In this document: in pieces, positions 25,848 to 60,297 of the stretch
Position numbering within the stretch: the first letter of the stretch is position 1
Layout of the letters: every line of letters starts with the position of its first letter
Assembly: GCA_007375535.1 (NCBI GenBank)
Contig: VMEM01000003.1
Span: 32,811 to 96,810 of the forward strand
Direction of reading: 5' to 3'
Length of the DNA stretch: 64,000 nt
Origin: Parcubacteria group bacterium LiPW_41
Lineage (GTDB): Bacteria > Patescibacteriota > Minisyncoccia > UBA6257 > GWB1-50-10
The notes under the pieces: generated by a model
What the model saw: only the letters and a program-made list of their open reading frames with translations
The model's database searches: none
Told to the model about the DNA's origin: nothing
Program-made: the position numbers and the translations under genes

Positions 25848-25956
25848 ATCCCGTTAGAAAACGGAACATTCATAAATAGTCTACTAATATGTATGTATGC
25901 AAAAACAAATAACAAAAATGTCGAATAACCAAAATTGTCAGGTCTTCTAACGGGAT
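25848..25956. repeat. IR-bounded intergenic element, copy A (ATCCCGTTAGAA ... TTCTAACGGGAT). Its last two bases are the AT of the queA start codon.
   Basis: Perfect 12-bp terminal inverted repeats, 109 bp overall. Begins 3 nt after the tgt stop. No SD-like sequence upstream of the queA ATG. Confidence 0.7.
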
Positions 25957-26974
25957 GAATCAGTATTTTTATGAATTGCCACGTGAGCTAATTGCACAAA
26001 AACCGGCAGAACCAAGAGATTCTTCACGTTTATTTGTGTACGATACAAAAACGGATGAAATTTTTTTTGATGTATTTCGAAATTGTGGAGAATATATTCC
26101 TTCGGGGAGTACATTAATTCTTAATAAGACAAAGGTTGTTCCTGCCCGTGTCTACATGGAAAAGGAAACTGGTGGAAAGATTGAGGTGTTATTTTTAATA
26201 AATGAATATGGAGGTGGAAAAGAGTTCTTGGTGATTGTGGATAGGAAATTAATAATTGGGCAGAAGTTATTTTTTCCCAATAGAAAAGCATTTGAAGTTA
26301 TTGATCAGAAGGATCAGTTTTTTACATTGAAATGTCTTTTTGATGAAAGTGAGATTTTTTCATTATTGGAAATATTCGGGACCACACCAATACCGAAATA
26401 TATACATGAACACAATCTTTCCGAATCGGTAATTAAAGATCGCTATCAAAGTATTTTCGCTGAAACGCCTGCTTCAATTGCGGCGCCAACGGCCTCATTA
26501 CATTTCACTAACGAAGTATTTGAATCGTTAAAAAAGAAGGACGTTATAACAGCGGAAATTCTCTTACATGTTGGTATGGGAACTTTTGCTCCAGTGAGTG
26601 ATGTTCAGATTCAGAGCGGAATGTTGCATAAGGAGTGGTATTCGATTCCAAAAGAGACTGAAGAAGTGATAAAGCTTTGCTCACAAAAATCCATCATTCC
26701 TGTTGGGACCACTGCAATGCGTGCATTGGAGTCGTTTGCAAAAACAGAAAAAAATGAAGGTATAACCAACTTATTTATAAAAAGGCCATTTCAATTCAGA
26801 GTTGCTTCTGGTCTTATCACTAATTTTCACGTTCCAGAGTCATCACTTATGTTTCTTGTTGATGCATTTCTAGAGTATAAGCATTCAAAACGAACAATTC
26901 TTGATTTATATAAAATTGCAATAAAGGAGAAGTTCCGTTTTTATTCATTTGGGGATGCGATGTACATAAAGTAG
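25955..26974 (+). CDS. queA: S-adenosylmethionine:tRNA ribosyltransferase-isomerase
   Basis: 339 aa. N-terminus YELPRELIAQKPAEPRDSSRL matches the QueA consensus. Confidence 0.9.
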   Translation: MNQYFYELPRELIAQKPAEPRDSSRLFVYDTKTDEIFFDVFRNCGEYIPSGSTLILNKTKVVPARVYMEKETGGKIEVLFLINEYGGGKEFLVIVDRKLIIGQKLFFPNRKAFEVIDQKDQFFTLKCLFDESEIFSLLEIFGTTPIPKYIHEHNLSESVIKDRYQSIFAETPASIAAPTASLHFTNEVFESLKKKDVITAEILLHVGMGTFAPVSDVQIQSGMLHKEWYSIPKETEEVIKLCSQKSIIPVGTTAMRALESFAKTEKNEGITNLFIKRPFQFRVASGLITNFHVPESSLMFLVDAFLEYKHSKRTILDLYKIAIKEKFRFYSFGDAMYIK

Positions 26975-45554: not shown

Positions 45555-46595
45555 ATGATTACTTTTATTGTTATTGTAGGAATTATATTTCTCATTCTTG
45601 CGCATGAATGTGGACATTTTTTTGTGGCGCGAAAGTTTAAGGTAACCGTTGAAGAGTTTGGTATTGGATATCCTCCTCGTATATGGAGCAAAACAAAGGA
45701 TGGGGTGGTATGGAGTATTAACGCGCTTCCTTTTGGTGGGTTTGTGAAGATTCTTGGAGAAGATGGAGGAAATAATGATCCAAACTCATTTTCAAAACAA
45801 AAAATTTGGAAAAGAATTTCTATTTTGTCTGCAGGGGTTCTTATGAACATCCTTGTCGGTTGGATTTTTTTCTCTGGGGTGTATATGACTGGGAGTCCTG
45901 AGCGCGCCATTGTAATGGACGTAAAACAAAATACTCCCGCGGCGATTGCGGGAATAGAAAAGGGGGACATAGTACTTGCACTTGAGTCTTCTGATGTAGG
46001 AATAGTAAAAAAACCAAACGCAGATGAATTTATTTCATTTACTGGAAAAGCGGTAGGTAAGGAGATGGTAATTGAAGTATCTCGACAGGGTAACAATAAA
46101 ATGTTTACCGTCATACCAAGAATAAATCCACCAGAAGGAGAGGGGGCATTAGGTGTTTCGATAACAAATGCAGGGTTCCCACGACAGTCATTTTTTTCTT
46201 CAATTCTAAGTGGATTTACAACAACTATTAGTGTTATTGGTGCGATTGTTGTGGGTTTGTTTAGTTTTTTTGCTCACATCTTTTCTCCTAATGGATTTGA
46301 TGCTGTTGCGGGTCCAATTGGGGTTGTGAAGATGGCATCAGAGATGGGAACATTGGGACTTTCTTATGTATTTCAAATTATTGGACTTATTTCCATTAAT
46401 CTTGCGATTCTTAATTTAATTCCATTTCCTGCACTTGATGGGGGGCGAATACTTTTCCTTATTATTGAAAAATTTAGGGGGAAGCCAGCACCAGAAAAAA
46501 TTGAGCAATGGGTAAATATGGCGGGATTTTTTATACTTATTGCACTTATGATCGCGGTTACATTTAAAGATTTGTCGCGGTTGTTTTCGGCCTAG
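45555..46595 (+). CDS. rseP: RseP-like site-2 zinc metalloprotease (M50) with a PDZ domain
   Basis: HExxH motif ILAHECGHFFVARKF, PDZ region, and C-terminal LDGGR motif. Confidence 0.85.
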   Translation: MITFIVIVGIIFLILAHECGHFFVARKFKVTVEEFGIGYPPRIWSKTKDGVVWSINALPFGGFVKILGEDGGNNDPNSFSKQKIWKRISILSAGVLMNILVGWIFFSGVYMTGSPERAIVMDVKQNTPAAIAGIEKGDIVLALESSDVGIVKKPNADEFISFTGKAVGKEMVIEVSRQGNNKMFTVIPRINPPEGEGALGVSITNAGFPRQSFFSSILSGFTTTISVIGAIVVGLFSFFAHIFSPNGFDAVAGPIGVVKMASEMGTLGLSYVFQIIGLISINLAILNLIPFPALDGGRILFLIIEKFRGKPAPEKIEQWVNMAGFFILIALMIAVTFKDLSRLFSA

Positions 46596-46623
46596 TTTAG
46601 ATATCTATTTGAAAAAAAGGCAT

Positions 46624-46658
46624 AAACCGTTCTATACTGTGATATAGAGCGGTTTTTA
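46624..46658 (+). terminator. Intrinsic terminator after rseP
   Basis: 12-bp stem aaccgttctata / tatagagcggtt (one G-U pair) followed by ttttt. Confidence 0.6.
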
Positions 46659-46665
46659 TATATTT

Positions 46666-46790
46666 ATCCCGTTAGAAACCGCGATCGCTTTGAGGGATAG
46701 GAAAATAATAAAACTATGAACCTTAGTCGAAACAATAAATTTATTCAACATGTCGCATCATTTTCGATTGCGATCTGTTTCTAACGGGAT
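46666..46790. repeat. IR-bounded intergenic element, copy B (ATCCCGTTAGAAAC ... GTTTCTAACGGGAT). Its last two bases are the AT of the proS start codon.
   Basis: Perfect 14-bp terminal inverted repeats, 125 bp overall. Same terminal sequence as copies A and C. Confidence 0.7.
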
Positions 46791-48489
46791 GCGACAATCT
46801 CACTATTTTTTGAAGACAAGCAAGACATTTTCCGAGGAGGATTCGATCATTTCAGCTCGTCTTTTAAAACAGGCAGGCTTTATTCAGGAGTCAGTGGCTG
46901 GCCGATATTATTTTTTACCAATTGGATATAAGGTCCAACAGAATATTATGAAGGTGGTAAAAGAGGAAATGGATAGGGTGGGGGCACAGGAAATGATTGC
47001 TCCAATTTTGCATCCACTTGAATTATGGAAAGAAACAAATAGGACTAACACTACTGGGTTTGAATTAATGAAGGTGAAAGATCGCCGTGGATCAGAGTTC
47101 GCCTTAGGAGGAACAGCCGAGGAAATGTTTGTTGATTTGGTTCGAAAATATGAATTGAGTTATAAAAATCTTCCATTTCATTTATATCAATTTTCTCCAA
47201 AATTTCGGGATGAGATTCGTGCGCGCGGAGGATTACTTCGAGTGCGTGAATTTATCATGAAAGATGGATATTCATTTCATAGAAATGAGGATGATTTTAA
47301 AACAACATATGAGGAGATGAAGAATGTGTATTCAAAGATATTTGAGAGAATGGGGCTCAAAACTGTCATTGTTGAAGCAGATAATGGATACATTGGTGGT
47401 GAATATTGTCATGAATTTATTGTTGAAGCCGAGAACGGAGAAAGTAGATTTTTTGTGTCGGAAGACGGGATATATGCCGCACACGAAGACATTGCAAAAT
47501 TTAAGCGCGATCCGGCAAATGCTAACGAAAAAGAATTGCCGTTTGAAATTATCTCACAACCTGAATGGGTGCAAACGATGGATGATAATGTAAAACATTA
47601 TCAAAAAGACAAAAAACATTTTCTAAAGAATGTAGTGTATAAAAATAGTACAACTGGGGAACTTATTATTGCTGTAGTGACAGGGGACTTAGAGGTGAAT
47701 CAGACAAAACTCGAACATGTACTAAAGATGGTTGGACAGCTTTCTCCTGCGGAAGATGCTGATTTAGAGAAGTTAGGAACGAAACACGGATATGTCCACT
47801 CATGGGGGCATAACGCGCGGTACATCGGAGATATTGTTCTTGCTGAAGCCAAAAATCTCATTGGAGGATTAAAGGAAGATACAACCGACTCAATTAATGT
47901 AAATCATGGGAGAGACTTCACTTGTGAGTTTCTTGCGGATATTGCATCAGCGAAGCCAGGCGATAAGTCAGAGGGTGGAAGTGTATTAGTAGAGAAGCGA
48001 GGAATAGAGGTAGGAAACACTTTCCAGCTTGGGTATCATTACACCACCCTTATGAAGGGGGCGACCTATAAAGATGAGGATGGTACTGAGAAGCCATTTT
48101 ATATGGGATGTTATGGAATAGGTATTGGTCGCACCATGGCAACATTGGTTGAGCAGTTTCATGATGCAAGGGGAATACAATGGCCAGAAGTAATTGCTCC
48201 ATTTAAGGTTCATCTGATTGCATTGCTTACAAAAGACGAAGATTTGAAAAAGGAGGCAGAATTACTCTATACTAGGCTTGTTGCATTAGGGGTAGAGGTA
48301 TTATTTGATGATCGAGAAGGAGTTTCTGCTGGTGAAAAACTTGCCGATGCAGACCTTGTTGGAATCCCTTATCGAGTGCTTATAAGTGAGAAAACAAGAA
48401 AAGAGGGAAAATTGGAATTGAAAAAGAGAATAGAAACTGTCGCACAATTATTGAGTGAGGATGAAATAATAAAAATTGTTACAAAATGA
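46789..48489 (+). CDS. proS: Prolyl-tRNA synthetase
   Basis: Class II aaRS motifs and a ProRS anticodon-binding domain. Start placed at ATG 46789 (MRQSHYFLKTSKTF...), which aligns with ProS N-termini. The tracked ORF start at 46750 lies inside the repeat element. Confidence 0.85.
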   Translation: MRQSHYFLKTSKTFSEEDSIISARLLKQAGFIQESVAGRYYFLPIGYKVQQNIMKVVKEEMDRVGAQEMIAPILHPLELWKETNRTNTTGFELMKVKDRRGSEFALGGTAEEMFVDLVRKYELSYKNLPFHLYQFSPKFRDEIRARGGLLRVREFIMKDGYSFHRNEDDFKTTYEEMKNVYSKIFERMGLKTVIVEADNGYIGGEYCHEFIVEAENGESRFFVSEDGIYAAHEDIAKFKRDPANANEKELPFEIISQPEWVQTMDDNVKHYQKDKKHFLKNVVYKNSTTGELIIAVVTGDLEVNQTKLEHVLKMVGQLSPAEDADLEKLGTKHGYVHSWGHNARYIGDIVLAEAKNLIGGLKEDTTDSINVNHGRDFTCEFLADIASAKPGDKSEGGSVLVEKRGIEVGNTFQLGYHYTTLMKGATYKDEDGTEKPFYMGCYGIGIGRTMATLVEQFHDARGIQWPEVIAPFKVHLIALLTKDEDLKKEAELLYTRLVALGVEVLFDDREGVSAGEKLADADLVGIPYRVLISEKTRKEGKLELKKRIETVAQLLSEDEIIKIVTK

Positions 48490-49511: not shown

Positions 49512-49543
49512 TCGAAATAATAAAATAGGGTTTTTCTAATAAG

Positions 49544-50239
49544 ATGAAAACAACTCGCATATTAGTTCAGGTGTTATTACTCATTTCTCTTATAGTTGCA
49601 CTCCTTATGTTTCGTAGTGAAATAGGTGATTTTATTGTTGGACTTCGTTCCGTTGTGTTTGGTGTGCTTGGTCCCTCATGCGAAGTACAAAAAATGAAAG
49701 ACGTTCAAGCAGAGAATGTATCACTCAAAAAACAAATTGAATTACTTTCACTTAAGATGGGAATAAAGGAGAATAGTGGAGAGCTTGTAGCAAATGTTTA
49801 TTCATCTTATCCATTTAATGACAAAGTTCATATTGTGGTTGATAAGGGGAGTAATGATGGAGTTAACGTTGGAATGCCGGTAATGGTACAAAAAAACATT
49901 GTTATCGGGAAAGTCATTTCAGTTAAAAAAACGCAAAGTGAGATTCAAACTATTTTTGATCCAGAATGGAAAACAAGTGTAGTGATTGGTACCTCGACAG
50001 TAAAGGCGGTTTTGAAAGGGGGAAATACTCCTGAGGTTCAATTTATTCCTAAAGATGCACACATTGTCTCTGGTGAGGAAGTATTAAATATCGCACAGGA
50101 ATTTCCAATTCATACTATACTTGGATCAATTAAATCGGTTCGGGAGGATGAGAAGAAGTTATGGCAGGTCGCGAGTATTGAATTGCCAGTTTCTTTTGAT
50201 GCACTTCGTACGGTAACTATACTTACGACATTTCCATAA
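49544..50239 (+). CDS. mreC: Rod shape-determining protein MreC
   Basis: N-terminal TM and coiled coil, then MreC beta-barrel motifs (VVIGTSTVKAVLKG, IVSGEEVLNIAQEFP). Confidence 0.75.
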   Translation: MKTTRILVQVLLLISLIVALLMFRSEIGDFIVGLRSVVFGVLGPSCEVQKMKDVQAENVSLKKQIELLSLKMGIKENSGELVANVYSSYPFNDKVHIVVDKGSNDGVNVGMPVMVQKNIVIGKVISVKKTQSEIQTIFDPEWKTSVVIGTSTVKAVLKGGNTPEVQFIPKDAHIVSGEEVLNIAQEFPIHTILGSIKSVREDEKKLWQVASIELPVSFDALRTVTILTTFP

Positions 50240-50719: not shown

Positions 50720-52581
50720 GATCAAGAAAGAATATTGAATTTGAAGAAATACTTTCTGACAAAAGCGTCGAGGGAAGTGTGCGAGAGGTTCCTGTTTCTG
50801 AAAGGACTTTTTTTGTCTTTGTTTCTTTTGTTGTTTTGATAGTAGGAATAGCAATCGTTGAACTTTTGTGGCTAAATGTTGGAAAGCGAGATCAGTATGT
50901 TGAAAGAGCACTTGATAATGTTTCTGACTCAAAGGTAAAACATTCTCCTCGAGGTATTATTTTTGATAGGTTTGAAAAAGCAATGACTGAAAACGCGCCA
51001 GCATTCAATGTGTATCTTATTCCTCAAAAACTTCCCATTGATATAGTTCAACGCGAAGAAGCAATAAAACGGATTGCAGATATTTTGAAGATGTCAGAGT
51101 GGGAACTTGTGCAGAAAATTGGAGACAGGGATTGGTCATTGTCTGGGAAAATGCTTTTAAGTGACGACATTACTCAGGATCAACTTGTTGAACTTTCTTC
51201 TTCTGAACATCTGGGCATTTCTATTGAGGAAAGTTTTCGACGAATTCATTCGGTCCCGTATGCATTTTCTGAATTTATTGGATATACAGGGCTTGTGAAC
51301 AAAGAGGATATTTCAAATGACTCCAATCTTACTATTGATGATCAGATTGGTCGTTCTGGACTTGAAATGTATTATGATCAATTTCTACGTGGAATTAATG
51401 GAAAAGACGTTGTGTATAAAACAGCAAGGGGAGAGATAAAAAATGAGCGCATAGAGCGAGAGCCAAAACCAGGAAAGAATGTTATTACATATATTGATTC
51501 TGAGCTTCAAACCGTTTTTTATAATAGTTTAAAGAAACAACTTGAATTTCTTGGAAGGGATGTTGGTGTTGGTATTGCAATTGATCCTAGAAATGGAGAA
51601 GTTCTTGCTCTAACCTCTGTTCCTGGATTTGATCCACATAAAATAGGAAGTGCGTTAGTTGATTCTCGGAGACCTTTGTTTAATAGAACCATTGCGGGGG
51701 TATATAACCCAGGATCAACAATAAAACCGCTTGTTGCTGTTGCTGCCCTTACGGAGAATATAATAACTCCAGTTTCAAGTTTTTTTTCTTCTGGAATGCT
51801 TGAAATACCAAACCCATACAATCCTTCACTTCCTTCCCGTTTTCCTGACAACAAAGCGCATGGATGGGTGAATGTTCGGTCTGCGATTGCTCGTTCGAGT
51901 AATGTGTTTTTTTATATTGTTGGAGGTGGATATCAGAACCAGAAAGGACTTGGAATCTACAAACTTAAGGAATGGTGGGGAGCTTTTGGGCTTGCAGAAA
52001 GAACTGGCATTGATATTCCCGGAGAAAAAGTTGGATTTCTTCCTGATCCAGAGTGGAAAGAAAAGGCAACAGATGATCCTTGGCGTTTAGGAGATACTTA
52101 CCATGTATCAATTGGACAGGGAGATTTTTCAGTAACTCCAATTGAACTATTAAATTACATTTGTGCAATTGCTAACGGGGGAACTCTCTACAAACCAAGA
52201 GTTGTCGATCGTATTAATGGTGTTGATGGAAGTGAATTGTTAAAAACATATCCAAGTGTTATAAGAGATTTAAAAACGAAAATTTCTTCGAGTGCACTTC
52301 ATGAGGTGCAAGAAGGAATGAAGGACACAATCGAAATGTCATACGGAACTGGATATTTACTTCATGATATTCCAATGCGCATTGCGGCAAAATCAGGAAC
52401 AGCACAGGTTCAAAATAACGCAAAGACAAATGCATTTTTTGTAGGATATGCCCCAGCGGAAGATCCAAAGATTGCTATACTCGTACTTGTCGAGAACTCA
52501 CGAGAAGGGAGCTTGAACGCAACTCCAGTAGCCAGAGAGGTTCTCCTATGGTACTATAATAATCGTCTCAAGGAGTTATAA
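50716..52581 (+). CDS. mrdA: Penicillin-binding protein 2 (elongasome transpeptidase)
   Basis: N-terminal TM and dimerisation domain. Transpeptidase motifs STIKP (SxxK), SSN (SxN) and KSGTA (KTG). Confidence 0.85.
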   Translation: MRSRKNIEFEEILSDKSVEGSVREVPVSERTFFVFVSFVVLIVGIAIVELLWLNVGKRDQYVERALDNVSDSKVKHSPRGIIFDRFEKAMTENAPAFNVYLIPQKLPIDIVQREEAIKRIADILKMSEWELVQKIGDRDWSLSGKMLLSDDITQDQLVELSSSEHLGISIEESFRRIHSVPYAFSEFIGYTGLVNKEDISNDSNLTIDDQIGRSGLEMYYDQFLRGINGKDVVYKTARGEIKNERIEREPKPGKNVITYIDSELQTVFYNSLKKQLEFLGRDVGVGIAIDPRNGEVLALTSVPGFDPHKIGSALVDSRRPLFNRTIAGVYNPGSTIKPLVAVAALTENIITPVSSFFSSGMLEIPNPYNPSLPSRFPDNKAHGWVNVRSAIARSSNVFFYIVGGGYQNQKGLGIYKLKEWWGAFGLAERTGIDIPGEKVGFLPDPEWKEKATDDPWRLGDTYHVSIGQGDFSVTPIELLNYICAIANGGTLYKPRVVDRINGVDGSELLKTYPSVIRDLKTKISSSALHEVQEGMKDTIEMSYGTGYLLHDIPMRIAAKSGTAQVQNNAKTNAFFVGYAPAEDPKIAILVLVENSREGSLNATPVAREVLLWYYNNRLKEL

Positions 52582-58843: not shown

Positions 58844-58889
58844 AGTTTAGTTGTTTGTGGTGATGTTATACTAAATATAGAGAAACGTG

Positions 58890-59078
58890 TCCCGTTAGAG
58901 ACGGTTTGTGAATGCATAACAAGTATTCTCACTATTATCTTTACCTGACACATAAGGAATAACAACAACGGAAATGGTTATTTATAACACTTACAATTAT
59001 ATCAATACACTGGTCGCACATACTACAGAAAATGGCTGTGACTCTACTCACATAACCATTTCCTGTCTCTAACGGGAT
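58890..59078. repeat. IR-bounded intergenic element, copy C (TCCCGTTAGAGAC ... GTCTCTAACGGGA[T]). Ends at the start codon of the pilin gene.
   Basis: 13-bp terminal inverted repeats, about 189 bp overall. Carries a compensatory change relative to copies A and B (GAAAC/GTTTC becomes GAGAC/GTCTC). Internal 10-bp hairpin ggaaatggtt / aaccatttcc. Confidence 0.7.
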
Positions 59079-59943: not shown

Positions 59944-60297
59944 ATGGATACCTCAACCAATTTAAAACAAAGGTGTTATAGGTTCGGACTTTTAATAATT
60001 CAGTTGTGCGACACGCTACCACAGAAGAGAAGCGCATGGATAATTAGTGACCAATGTATCCGTTCAGCCACAAGTATTGGCGCCAATCTTATAGAAGCAC
60101 GCGCTTCAAGCTCTCGCTTAGAATTCAAGAAGTTCTTCGAAGTCGCCCTTAAGAGCGCAAATGAAACAGTCTATTGGTTATCCCTGTTAAAAGATTCTGG
60201 ATTAGCGAGTAACGAAAAGATTTCTCCACTTATCCAAGAGTGTGAAGAACTTGCAAAGATGTTAGGAAAGAGTGTACTAACACTTAAGAAGAAATAA
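59944..60297 (+). CDS. Four-helix-bundle protein (23S rRNA intervening-sequence protein family)
   Basis: 117 aa. Pattern IRSATSIGANLIEA...EF..F..ALKSANETVYWLSLL characteristic of this family. Confidence 0.65.
   Translation: MDTSTNLKQRCYRFGLLIIQLCDTLPQKRSAWIISDQCIRSATSIGANLIEARASSSRLEFKKFFEVALKSANETVYWLSLLKDSGLASNEKISPLIQECEELAKMLGKSVLTLKKK

Follow-up and report, generated by a model that had tools for sequence, protein, structure and literature searches.

The window analysed here, a stretch of 64,000 nucleotides, carries a gene for an RseP-like site-2 protease followed by a terminator-like hairpin, a short inverted-repeat element (copy B), and proS, all on the forward strand (Table 1). The original prediction had placed the rseP stop, an intrinsic terminator, and, 8 nt further on, a left repeat in this order, and the order held; the left arm of copy B begins 11 nt past the end of the stem (46655) and 8 nt past 46658, where the terminator had been taken to end. 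The hairpin is kept directly before the proS ATG in three other loci (L001, L003, and L130). The promoter-like site fits 10 of 12 consensus positions, and its TATACT is kept in relatives lacking the element at this place. Because this site lies within the rseP terminator hairpin, the hairpin may double as terminator and proS promoter. Leaders in the element-free sites would be only ∼8-20 nt long, without a Shine-Dalgarno sequence, and a TGnTATACT motif also occurs upstream of the pilin gene (58870-58878). In relatives with 93% identity (L003, 2365-5279; L004; L005), rseP is separated from the proS hairpin by a diversity-generating retroelement cassette (bAvd and reverse transcriptase ORFs) that the window lacks.

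The longest proS ORF begins at 46750 and runs through the right arm of copy B, as originally predicted, yet the true start is very likely 46789, whose ATG (46789-46791) takes in the last two bases of that arm. The earlier proposal that this ATG gives the N-terminus aligning with ProS proteins is supported by 115 of the 120 best ProS homologues, which begin M[RKL]xS..F in alignment with Met 46789; two of the remainder have unrelated extensions and two are partial. The 13-aa extension MSHHFRLRSVSNG is found among the 120 only in the identical 579-aa NCBI protein of the LiPW_41 MAG, and relatives with 93% and 91% ProS identity are annotated with 566 aa. Conservation of this extension would have refuted the proposal; it was checked, the extension is not conserved, and the claim stands.

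The arms of copy B, ATCCCGTTAGAAAC (46666-46679) and GTTTCTAACGGGAT (46777-46790), are complementary at 14 of 14 positions and enclose 97 nt, in keeping with the perfect 14-bp terminal repeats around ∼97 bp first noticed. The outermost pair, A46666 with T46790, belongs to the flank and to the proS ATG, respectively, and lies outside copy B, leaving the terminal stem P1. The motif ...CGCGATCT before P1 is present in copy B and in many family members. In both the minimum-free-energy and centroid folds, the 5′ strand of a second stem, P2, pairs with CGATTGCG at 46765-46772, and with a 4-nt bulge (ATCT, 46773-46776) P1 and P2 make up ∼21 bp. The folding energy is -38.9 kcal/mol, compared with -23.2 ± 3.1 in shuffles (z = -5.0), and the start of the 22-codon mini-ORF is unpaired in the centroid fold. 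The left flank reads ...ATATTTA, and the left target duplicate seen in other family members is absent. One large subfamily, represented at 46680-46688 of the window and at many other loci, has CGCGATCGC / GATCGCGATC beside the arms, containing the palindrome GCGATCGC. This palindrome is the HIP1 sequence of cyanobacteria.

Table 1. Features of the proS locus and of the other element copies in the window
Feature	Position	Strand	Basis or remark
Copy A, 107 bp, between tgt and queA	25849..25955	+	duplication TGAA 25845-25848 / 25956-25959
Copy A mini-ORF, 17 codons MQKQITKMSNNQNCQVF, then right-arm TAA	25897..25950	+	
rseP-like gene (site-2 protease)	45555..46595	+	ORF; L001 and L003 orthologues carry Peptidase_M50 and PDZ_2
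Promoter-like TTGAAA-18-TATACT, overlapping hairpin	46609..46638	+	candidate proS promoter; consensus match only
Terminator-like hairpin with T-rich tail	46624..46665	+	13 bp, loop of 6 (46624-46655)
Copy B, T...A, 123 bp	46667..46789	+	arms; empty sites in L003 and L004
Left arm of terminal stem P1, TCCCGTTAGAAAC	46667..46679	+	arm complementarity
P2 5′ strand, CGCGATCG	46680..46687	+	pairing as given in the text
Copy B mini-ORF, 22 codons MNLSRNNKFIQHVASFSIAICF, then right-arm TAA	46716..46784	+	stops 4 nt before proS ATG
In-frame ATG and 13 codons in copy B	46750..46788	+	annotated, non-conserved ProS extension
Right arm of P1, GTTTCTAACGGGA	46777..46789	+	holds TAA 46782-46784; last A is the A of the proS ATG
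proS from orthologous start, 566 aa	46789..48489	+	homologue alignment
Relic copy D, right ∼33-35 nt (…GTCGAAATAATAAAATAGGGTTTTTCTAATAAGA; ...TTTTTCTAATAAGA)	49512..49544	+	abuts mreC ATG at 49544
Copy C, 188 bp, at pilin-like gene start (ATG 59077)	58890..59077	+	left duplicate decayed to AACGTG
Copy C mini-ORF, 32 codons, then right-arm TAA	58974..59072	+	

A mobile element that rebuilds start codons

With up to 2 mismatches allowed, the 14-mer has six matches in the window, against a chance expectation of 0.35 and with 0 of 100 shuffles reaching six. These matches form three inverted pairs in one common orientation (A, 25848/25956; B, 46666/46790; C, 58889/59078), each ending ...TCTAACGGG directly at the ATG of a long ORF, namely queA, proS, and a type IV pilin-like gene. 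The original claim that copy B ends exactly at the start codon, as copies A and C do, was correct and describes a family-wide rule; what had been missed was the mobile family itself, the 4-bp duplication with its terminal A, the missing left duplicate of copy B, the promoter-like site, and the 22-codon ORF. The three copies can be aligned at their ends only, each folds as a long closed stem (z of -3.2, -5.0, and -5.8 for A, B, and C), and all hold a mini-ORF ending at the right-arm TAA. The left ATG of copy A (25844) overlaps the tgt TAA, and relic copy D aligns with the right end of an intact element at mreC in the 91% relative L001. A lone CTAACGGG at 52172-52179 in a penicillin-binding protein gene has no partner arm and was judged a chance match. 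Right after the pilin-like gene, at 59944-60297, the window has a lone '23S rRNA intervening sequence protein' (Avd-like) ORF without an adjacent reverse transcriptase.

Comparison with relatives shows that the element is mobile, on the basis of empty sites at proS, the pilin gene, and queA together with copies at other genes. In L003 and L004 (93% ProS identity), the same hairpin is followed by TTTTTATTATT and then ATGCGC with no element, placing the insertion of copy B right at the ATG; a precise empty proS site in the source population would read ...TATATTTA joined to TGCGACAATC. The pilin gene of L001 is likewise empty (TATACTAAATATATAGAGA, then ATGAAG). At queA, L126 (84% QueA identity) reads ...TTAGGATGAATCAA, with tgt and queA overlapping as GGATGAATCAA, and the window has instead ATGAA, the element, and TGAATCAG, a 4-bp duplication of TGAA relative to L126. 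L001 in turn carries copies at rseP (duplication TGAT) and mreC, where the window has an empty rseP site and only the mreC relic, and its copies have interior sequence in common with copy A. The more distant L127 and L128 retain the right-arm relic TTTTCTAACGGG alone before the queA ATG. In a relative with 73% QueA identity (L129, 1170-1190), AACCGGGATG lies upstream of queA and now encodes the C-terminus of tgt; it is possibly a right-arm relic absorbed into the upstream gene.

Signs of mobility are also found within single genomes, including near-identical copies (L109/L124) and tandem copies sharing one duplication, such as those of L098. Among tandem or nested copies (L098, 5472-5711; L019, 5898-6279; L022; L110), the second element lies in the regenerated ATGAA or the right arm of the first. 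The rplI start carries the same subfamily in two species in opposite orientations (L106, 3226-3345; L108, 2393-2513), so these are independent hits on one gene start. Copy B thus belongs to a mobile, non-autonomous element family that makes a 4-bp duplication, sits in start codons, and rebuilds the ATG. The family meets the criteria for a MITE, with terminal inverted repeats, a short duplication, small size without a transposase gene, and presence or absence between relatives, and it behaves like one, with no autonomous partner found in the window or the flanking DNA examined.

The family was collected by an exact-pattern scan with one genome per species, which returned at least 120 stretches. 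By record title, ∼93 of 120 are Patescibacteria, 14 are unclassified, and 13 carry other labels (Omnitrophota, Sedimentisphaerales/Planctomycetia, Elusimicrobia, WOR-3, Desulfobacterales or Gammaproteobacteria), some of which may be binning errors. These loci and the window together hold 152 elements; element counts ignore shared descent and so are not independent. The elements measure 70-280 bp, mostly 100-130 bp, their sole coding content is an ORF of 6-33 codons with a non-conserved peptide, and 123 of the 152 abut an ORF of at least 60 codons. As the pattern used for genomes ended in T and may have favored ATG, the scan was repeated in metagenomes without the flanking base, giving at least 120 stretches with 131 elements, only three of them identical to the genome set. 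Here 108 of 131 (82%) lie at starts and 119 are followed by TG. Elements caught incidentally lie at starts in 6-9 of 16 cases. These by-catch elements and the unbiased metagenome scan indicate that the association with start codons is real.

The flanks define both the element and its target. Immediately before TCCCG, the left flank is most often ATGAA (50), ATGGA (18), or ATGAG (16), with matching bases at the right end; rarer flanks (ATGCA, ATGCC, ATGCG) match likewise, so that the two copies vary together. At three sites a GTGRR left flank faces an ATGRR right flank, meaning that the A of the working ATG comes from the element, and copies away from starts carry duplications such as TAAA, TTGA, CTGA, TTTA, and CATG. 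Taken together, these sites indicate an element of the form T...A with a 4-bp duplication, which is exact in 73 of 108 metagenome elements; in some copies the repeat measures 3 or 5 bp or has decayed. Of 91 sites, 87 have a purine at position +3 and 90 at position +4, T is never seen at either, and 45% of genes in the genome-sample loci begin ATGRR. If TGRR were the sole requirement and all intergenic DNA were neutral, ∼11% of copies would be expected at starts. The preference for start codons may combine targeting and selection. No relation between the duplication and the subterminal bases was seen in the alignment, judged by eye without statistics, and a HUH-type guide reading was rejected.

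Variants with a C...G terminal pair (CCCCGTTAGA...TCTAACGGGG) were observed at L086 (433-510), L096 (1251-1481), L114 (3888-4164), and L115 (7468-7545). All four read CCCCG...CGGGG and lie away from start codons, as they should if rebuilding the ATG depends on the terminal A.

The genes downstream of the 123 abutting elements fall into 106 clusters, including topA, pheT, murG, secG, rplQ, rplI, and proS, and a regulon reading was rejected for this reason. A phage origin was rejected because 2.9 million viral contigs gave no match to the pattern. Neither the window nor ∼1.8 Mb of flanking DNA yielded a transposase bearing these ends, within the limits of collection patterns spanning at most 600 bp. 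Window ORFs on the minus strand or of unknown function were excluded as transposases, being a PEGA-domain protein, thymidine kinase, and similar genes; ORFs between distant arm-like sites were DnaE, MurA, Map, and Ndk. Arms that appear unpaired have degenerate partners ∼100 nt away and do not bound long inserts.

Arm pairing, orientation, and a stop-depleted frame

The family consensus is 5′-TCCCGTTAGA-RRY ... RYY-TCTAACGGGA-3′ around a very variable interior, and P1 is 13 bp long in 86 of 152 members. Among the 123 abutting elements, the bases at stem positions 11-13 change but stay R-Y, R-Y, and Y-R pairs, each position showing only 4-8 mismatches. Compensated variants are present in the outer 10 bp as well, among them the CCCCG...CGGGG copies. 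This co-variation implies that the arms must stay complementary, which points to a paired intermediate or arm homogenization and not to a pair of protein-binding sites alone. In the general anatomy of the family, a small hairpin or second stem closes in CCT/TCT inside the right arm: CCT or TCT lies just within the right arm in 70 of 123 copies, and a local hairpin of 5-9 bp with co-varying pairs ends there in 44 of 123, compared with 15 at the mirrored left position. Counts of G-U versus A-C mismatches were uninformative, with too few cases, and sense and antisense folding energies differed little (p = 0.07), so that neither measure supports selection at the RNA level.

With this subterminal asymmetry as a marker, orientation relative to the gene is strongly biased, with a ratio of 69:7 for the genomes and 62:3 for the metagenomes. 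A replication-strand cause, such as insertion into single-stranded DNA, was rejected because the bias tracks the gene: where GC skew places genes on the apparent lagging strand, the usual orientation still prevails by 9:3.

Read in the frame of the gene, the right arm is UCU AAC GGG AUG; it carries UAA in the second frame and, when the gene begins AUGA, UGA in the third. The arm TAA ends 4 nt before the ATG in every copy; the alternative TGA overlaps ATGA. In the genome sample the stop-free run before the arm UAA has a median of 23 codons, compared with 14 and 12 in the other two frames, 13 in the reverse-complemented element, and 10.4 in interior-shuffled elements, and its mean is 23.2 against 13.9 ± 1.0 in shuffles (TAA frame versus gene's frame, paired test, p = 2e-9). 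ORFs of at least 5 codons that begin with ATG and end at the arm UAA occur in 60 of 123 elements, whereas shuffles give 20.6 ± 4.1 and the antisense strand 19, and ATGs in the gene's frame are depleted (15 observed, 24.3 ± 4.7 in shuffles). Within the unalignable interior alone, the TAA frame has a stop density of 5.1%, compared with 8.7% and 9.9% for the two remaining frames (p = 5e-10), with antisense frames flat. The metagenome sample replicates these results: the median runs are 23, 16, and 12 codons, and stop density is 5.0%, 8.0%, and 10.5% (p = 9e-11). The shuffles kept mononucleotide content only; the three-frame and antisense comparisons serve as internal controls. The few reversed elements lack this frame when read along the strand of the gene.

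No stop interrupts the frame between the original left ATG and the UAA in 24 of 91 elements; the others open it at an internal ATG lying 20-100 nt upstream of the gene. Universal coupling from the left ATG was rejected, since no more than 33 of 91 uORFs starting there extend to the right-arm stops and their frames split 42/28/21; the left ATG is one of two routes and not the rule. A Shine-Dalgarno sequence is present at only 14 of 91 host sites, and none is clear at the internal ATGs of copies A and C. The peptides are not conserved past the residues dictated by the arm, so that translation itself, and not its product, seems to be what is kept. That the frame-specific depletion of stops reflects translation through the element is an inference from sequence statistics, without expression data.

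Proposed mechanism and alternatives

The reading favored here, with moderate confidence, is that copy B is a MITE-like transposon lodged in a start codon that is translated through, with restart at the regenerated ATG; the translation step is inferred from sequence statistics. As sequence comparison shows, insertion duplicates 4 bp, typically TGRR of ATGRR at a gene start, such that the left copy retains the original ATG while the terminal A and the right TGRR restore an ATG and leave the ORF whole. A short ORF would begin at the left ATG or at one within the interior, which is AU-rich and unstructured, and run in a single frame to the right-arm UAA (UCUAACGGGAUG). A ribosome in that frame would unfold the terminal stem, stop 4 nt short of the rebuilt AUG, and re-initiate there, making the element tolerable even in essential genes. 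In copy B, which has lost the left duplicate, the internal 22-codon ORF would do the coupling. This model would account for the orientation bias, the abutment of arm and ATG, and the scarcity of in-frame ATGs. Termination-reinitiation requires an overlap or a very short distance between stop and start, and ∼20 nt nearly abolishes coupling (PMC10666635). This need for a short distance (PMC10666635; PMC6728339) could explain why copies survive only when they abut the ATG and why their orientation counts. The fixed, short length of the duplication points to a transposase that makes staggered cuts and acts in trans, and the co-variation of the arms suggests that they pair during transposition.

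Several observations count against this model. Only about half of the elements hold an ATG-started ORF ending at the arm TAA, copies A and C would need initiation at internal ATGs without a clear Shine-Dalgarno sequence, and the lack of conservation of the peptides means that there is no independent evidence of their production. Regarding transposition, a duplication that is 3-5 bp or absent, as in copy B, is looser than that of many transposases. A bolder version holds that the family is an undescribed superfamily specialized for start codons, whose repeat combines transposon end, stop, and first base of the ATG, and which brings its own ribosome entry and short ORF and sustains host expression by stop and restart; this version is as likely to fail as to hold.

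The most serious alternative, although an unlikely one, is an inert hairpin transposon in which the stem loops the insert out, initiation occurs de novo at the AUG with the original upstream signals brought close, and the open frame is a by-product. In its favor, the terminal stems fold with high stability (-22 to -53 kcal/mol, z of -3 to -6), the arms co-vary, most host genes lack a Shine-Dalgarno sequence, and copies B and C have no upstream ATG, yet proS is essential. This explanation leaves unexplained the stop depletion, which is specific to frame and strand, as well as the 10-20:1 orientation bias and the depletion of in-frame ATGs. RNA processing, in which RNase III or a similar enzyme cuts the P1/P2 duplex to leave an mRNA with a very short leader, is less probable still. 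In its favor, P1 and P2 of copy B form a bulged duplex of ∼21 bp, and RNase III cuts the MITE terminal repeats of Correia elements (PMC10969869), but processing predicts no coding-frame signature, does not explain the nucleotide-exact abutment of arm and ATG, and is supported by no processing data.

It is also very improbable that the family is a conserved cis-regulatory RNA (a riboswitch, thermometer, or protein-binding leader) that is repeated without being a transposon. The ends are strongly conserved across phyla, the subterminal hairpin co-varies, and alternative pairings exist (an internal CGGGA box); against this, duplications, empty sites, relics, tandem copies, and unrelated host genes favor a mobile element, and the interiors cannot be aligned. 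At gathering threshold, Rfam placed no family, including T-box, riboswitch, and self-cleaving ribozyme families, on the elements of the window or of 18 loci, and a known RNA leader or ribozyme, such as a T-box for proS, was therefore rejected. A scan of 46560-46860 at E ≤ 10 gave only weak matches, of which the top two fell on the rseP terminator hairpin and the others scored well under the gathering scores of their families. Finally, the start at 46750 could be genuine and give ProS a 13-aa element-encoded extension, as the ATG is in frame and open and NCBI annotates the 579-aa form. This can be largely dismissed, because the extension is missing in 115 of 120 homologues, including the 91-93% relatives, is encoded by inserted DNA, and starts at an in-frame ATG of the type selected against in the family. 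Some co-production of ProS from 46750 remains possible.

Translation through the element with restart at the rebuilt ATG, if correct, would be a new way for a transposon to be harmless, nesting in a start codon and regenerating it with a stop-restart junction in its repeat. It would open a way to study translation initiation in Patescibacteria, a group with low Shine-Dalgarno use and few experiments, and would explain a class of wrong N-terminal extensions in MAG annotation. Read in frame, the right arm gives ...SNGM, as in the deposited ProS, and this signature may flag similar mis-called starts. Under the bolder version, a few per cent of the gene starts of many Patescibacteria would hold such an element, and start annotation would be misled systematically. 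The element could further serve as a marker of recent gene-start turnover between close relatives and as a compact natural translational-coupling cassette for synthetic biology. The 10-13-nt ends are conserved across phylum-level lineages, with no transposase known for them.

Comparison with known systems

A literature search by sequence and keywords, together with a 2024 review of prokaryotic MITEs, returned nothing on start-codon elements or on Patescibacteria, and the family is likely undescribed although common in Patescibacteria (CPR). The Correia elements of Neisseria (CREE/NEMIS) are 100-155 bp long and non-autonomous, with terminal inverted repeats, short duplications, and no known transposase (PMC10969869). 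They resemble the present family in being small, located just upstream of genes, and co-transcribed, with a hairpin RNA that affects expression (PMC10969869). Correia elements differ in their 26-bp repeats of unrelated sequence, TA duplication, and restriction to one genus, whereas the start-codon family is found in many lineages of Patescibacteria; they lie outside start codons, and neither a repeat-borne stop nor a regenerated ATG has been described for them. Identity with Correia elements was rejected because arm sequence and duplication differ.

REPINs likewise have two inverted conserved arms, a variable spacer, and a hairpin, and their arms are reportedly kept complementary by compensatory change and mobilized in trans by RAYT (Bertels and Rainey 2011). 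Unlike the present family, REPINs lie outside genes, insert without a target duplication, and have a GTAG motif, and no RAYT-like gene flanked by the arms of the start-codon element was found. A REP/REPIN-RAYT identity was rejected given the duplication and the 82% of copies abutting start codons. Palindromic elements derived from IS200/IS605 insert 3′ of a single fixed tetra- or pentanucleotide, with neither duplication nor terminal inverted repeat. Derivation from IS200/IS605 was rejected as well, since the flanking repeat varies (TGAA, TGGA, TGAG, TGCG, TAAA, and others) and matches on both sides of perfect terminal repeats. Transposons of the IS1380 and piggyBac type make a 4-bp duplication and have ends starting CCC, and piggyBac excises precisely. 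The resemblance of the piggyBac end CCCTAGAAAG to CCCGTTAGAAA of the start-codon element is a lead only; no such transposase was found.

Other likenesses concern how the host tolerates the insertion. Rickettsia palindromic elements are palindromic, mobile, and tolerated within genes through reading by the ribosome (PMC10969869); they are translated in frame within the host protein, whereas the start-codon element is excluded from it by the repeat stop and the proposed restart. In translational coupling, a stop lies a few nucleotides from the next start and the upstream ORF unfolds structure around that start (PMC6728339; PMC10666635); the difference here is that the upstream ORF and its stop are on a mobile element and not in a neighboring gene. 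In algae, the end of introner-like DNA transposons and the target duplication together reportedly recreate a splice site (Huff, Zilberman and Roy 2016). In both cases a signal recreated by the insertion would make it harmless within a gene, a splice site in introners and a start codon in the present family. Introners are eukaryotic and removed by splicing, whereas the start-codon element is bacterial and would be handled by translation, making it, if the proposed reading is correct, a bacterial counterpart of introner transposons.
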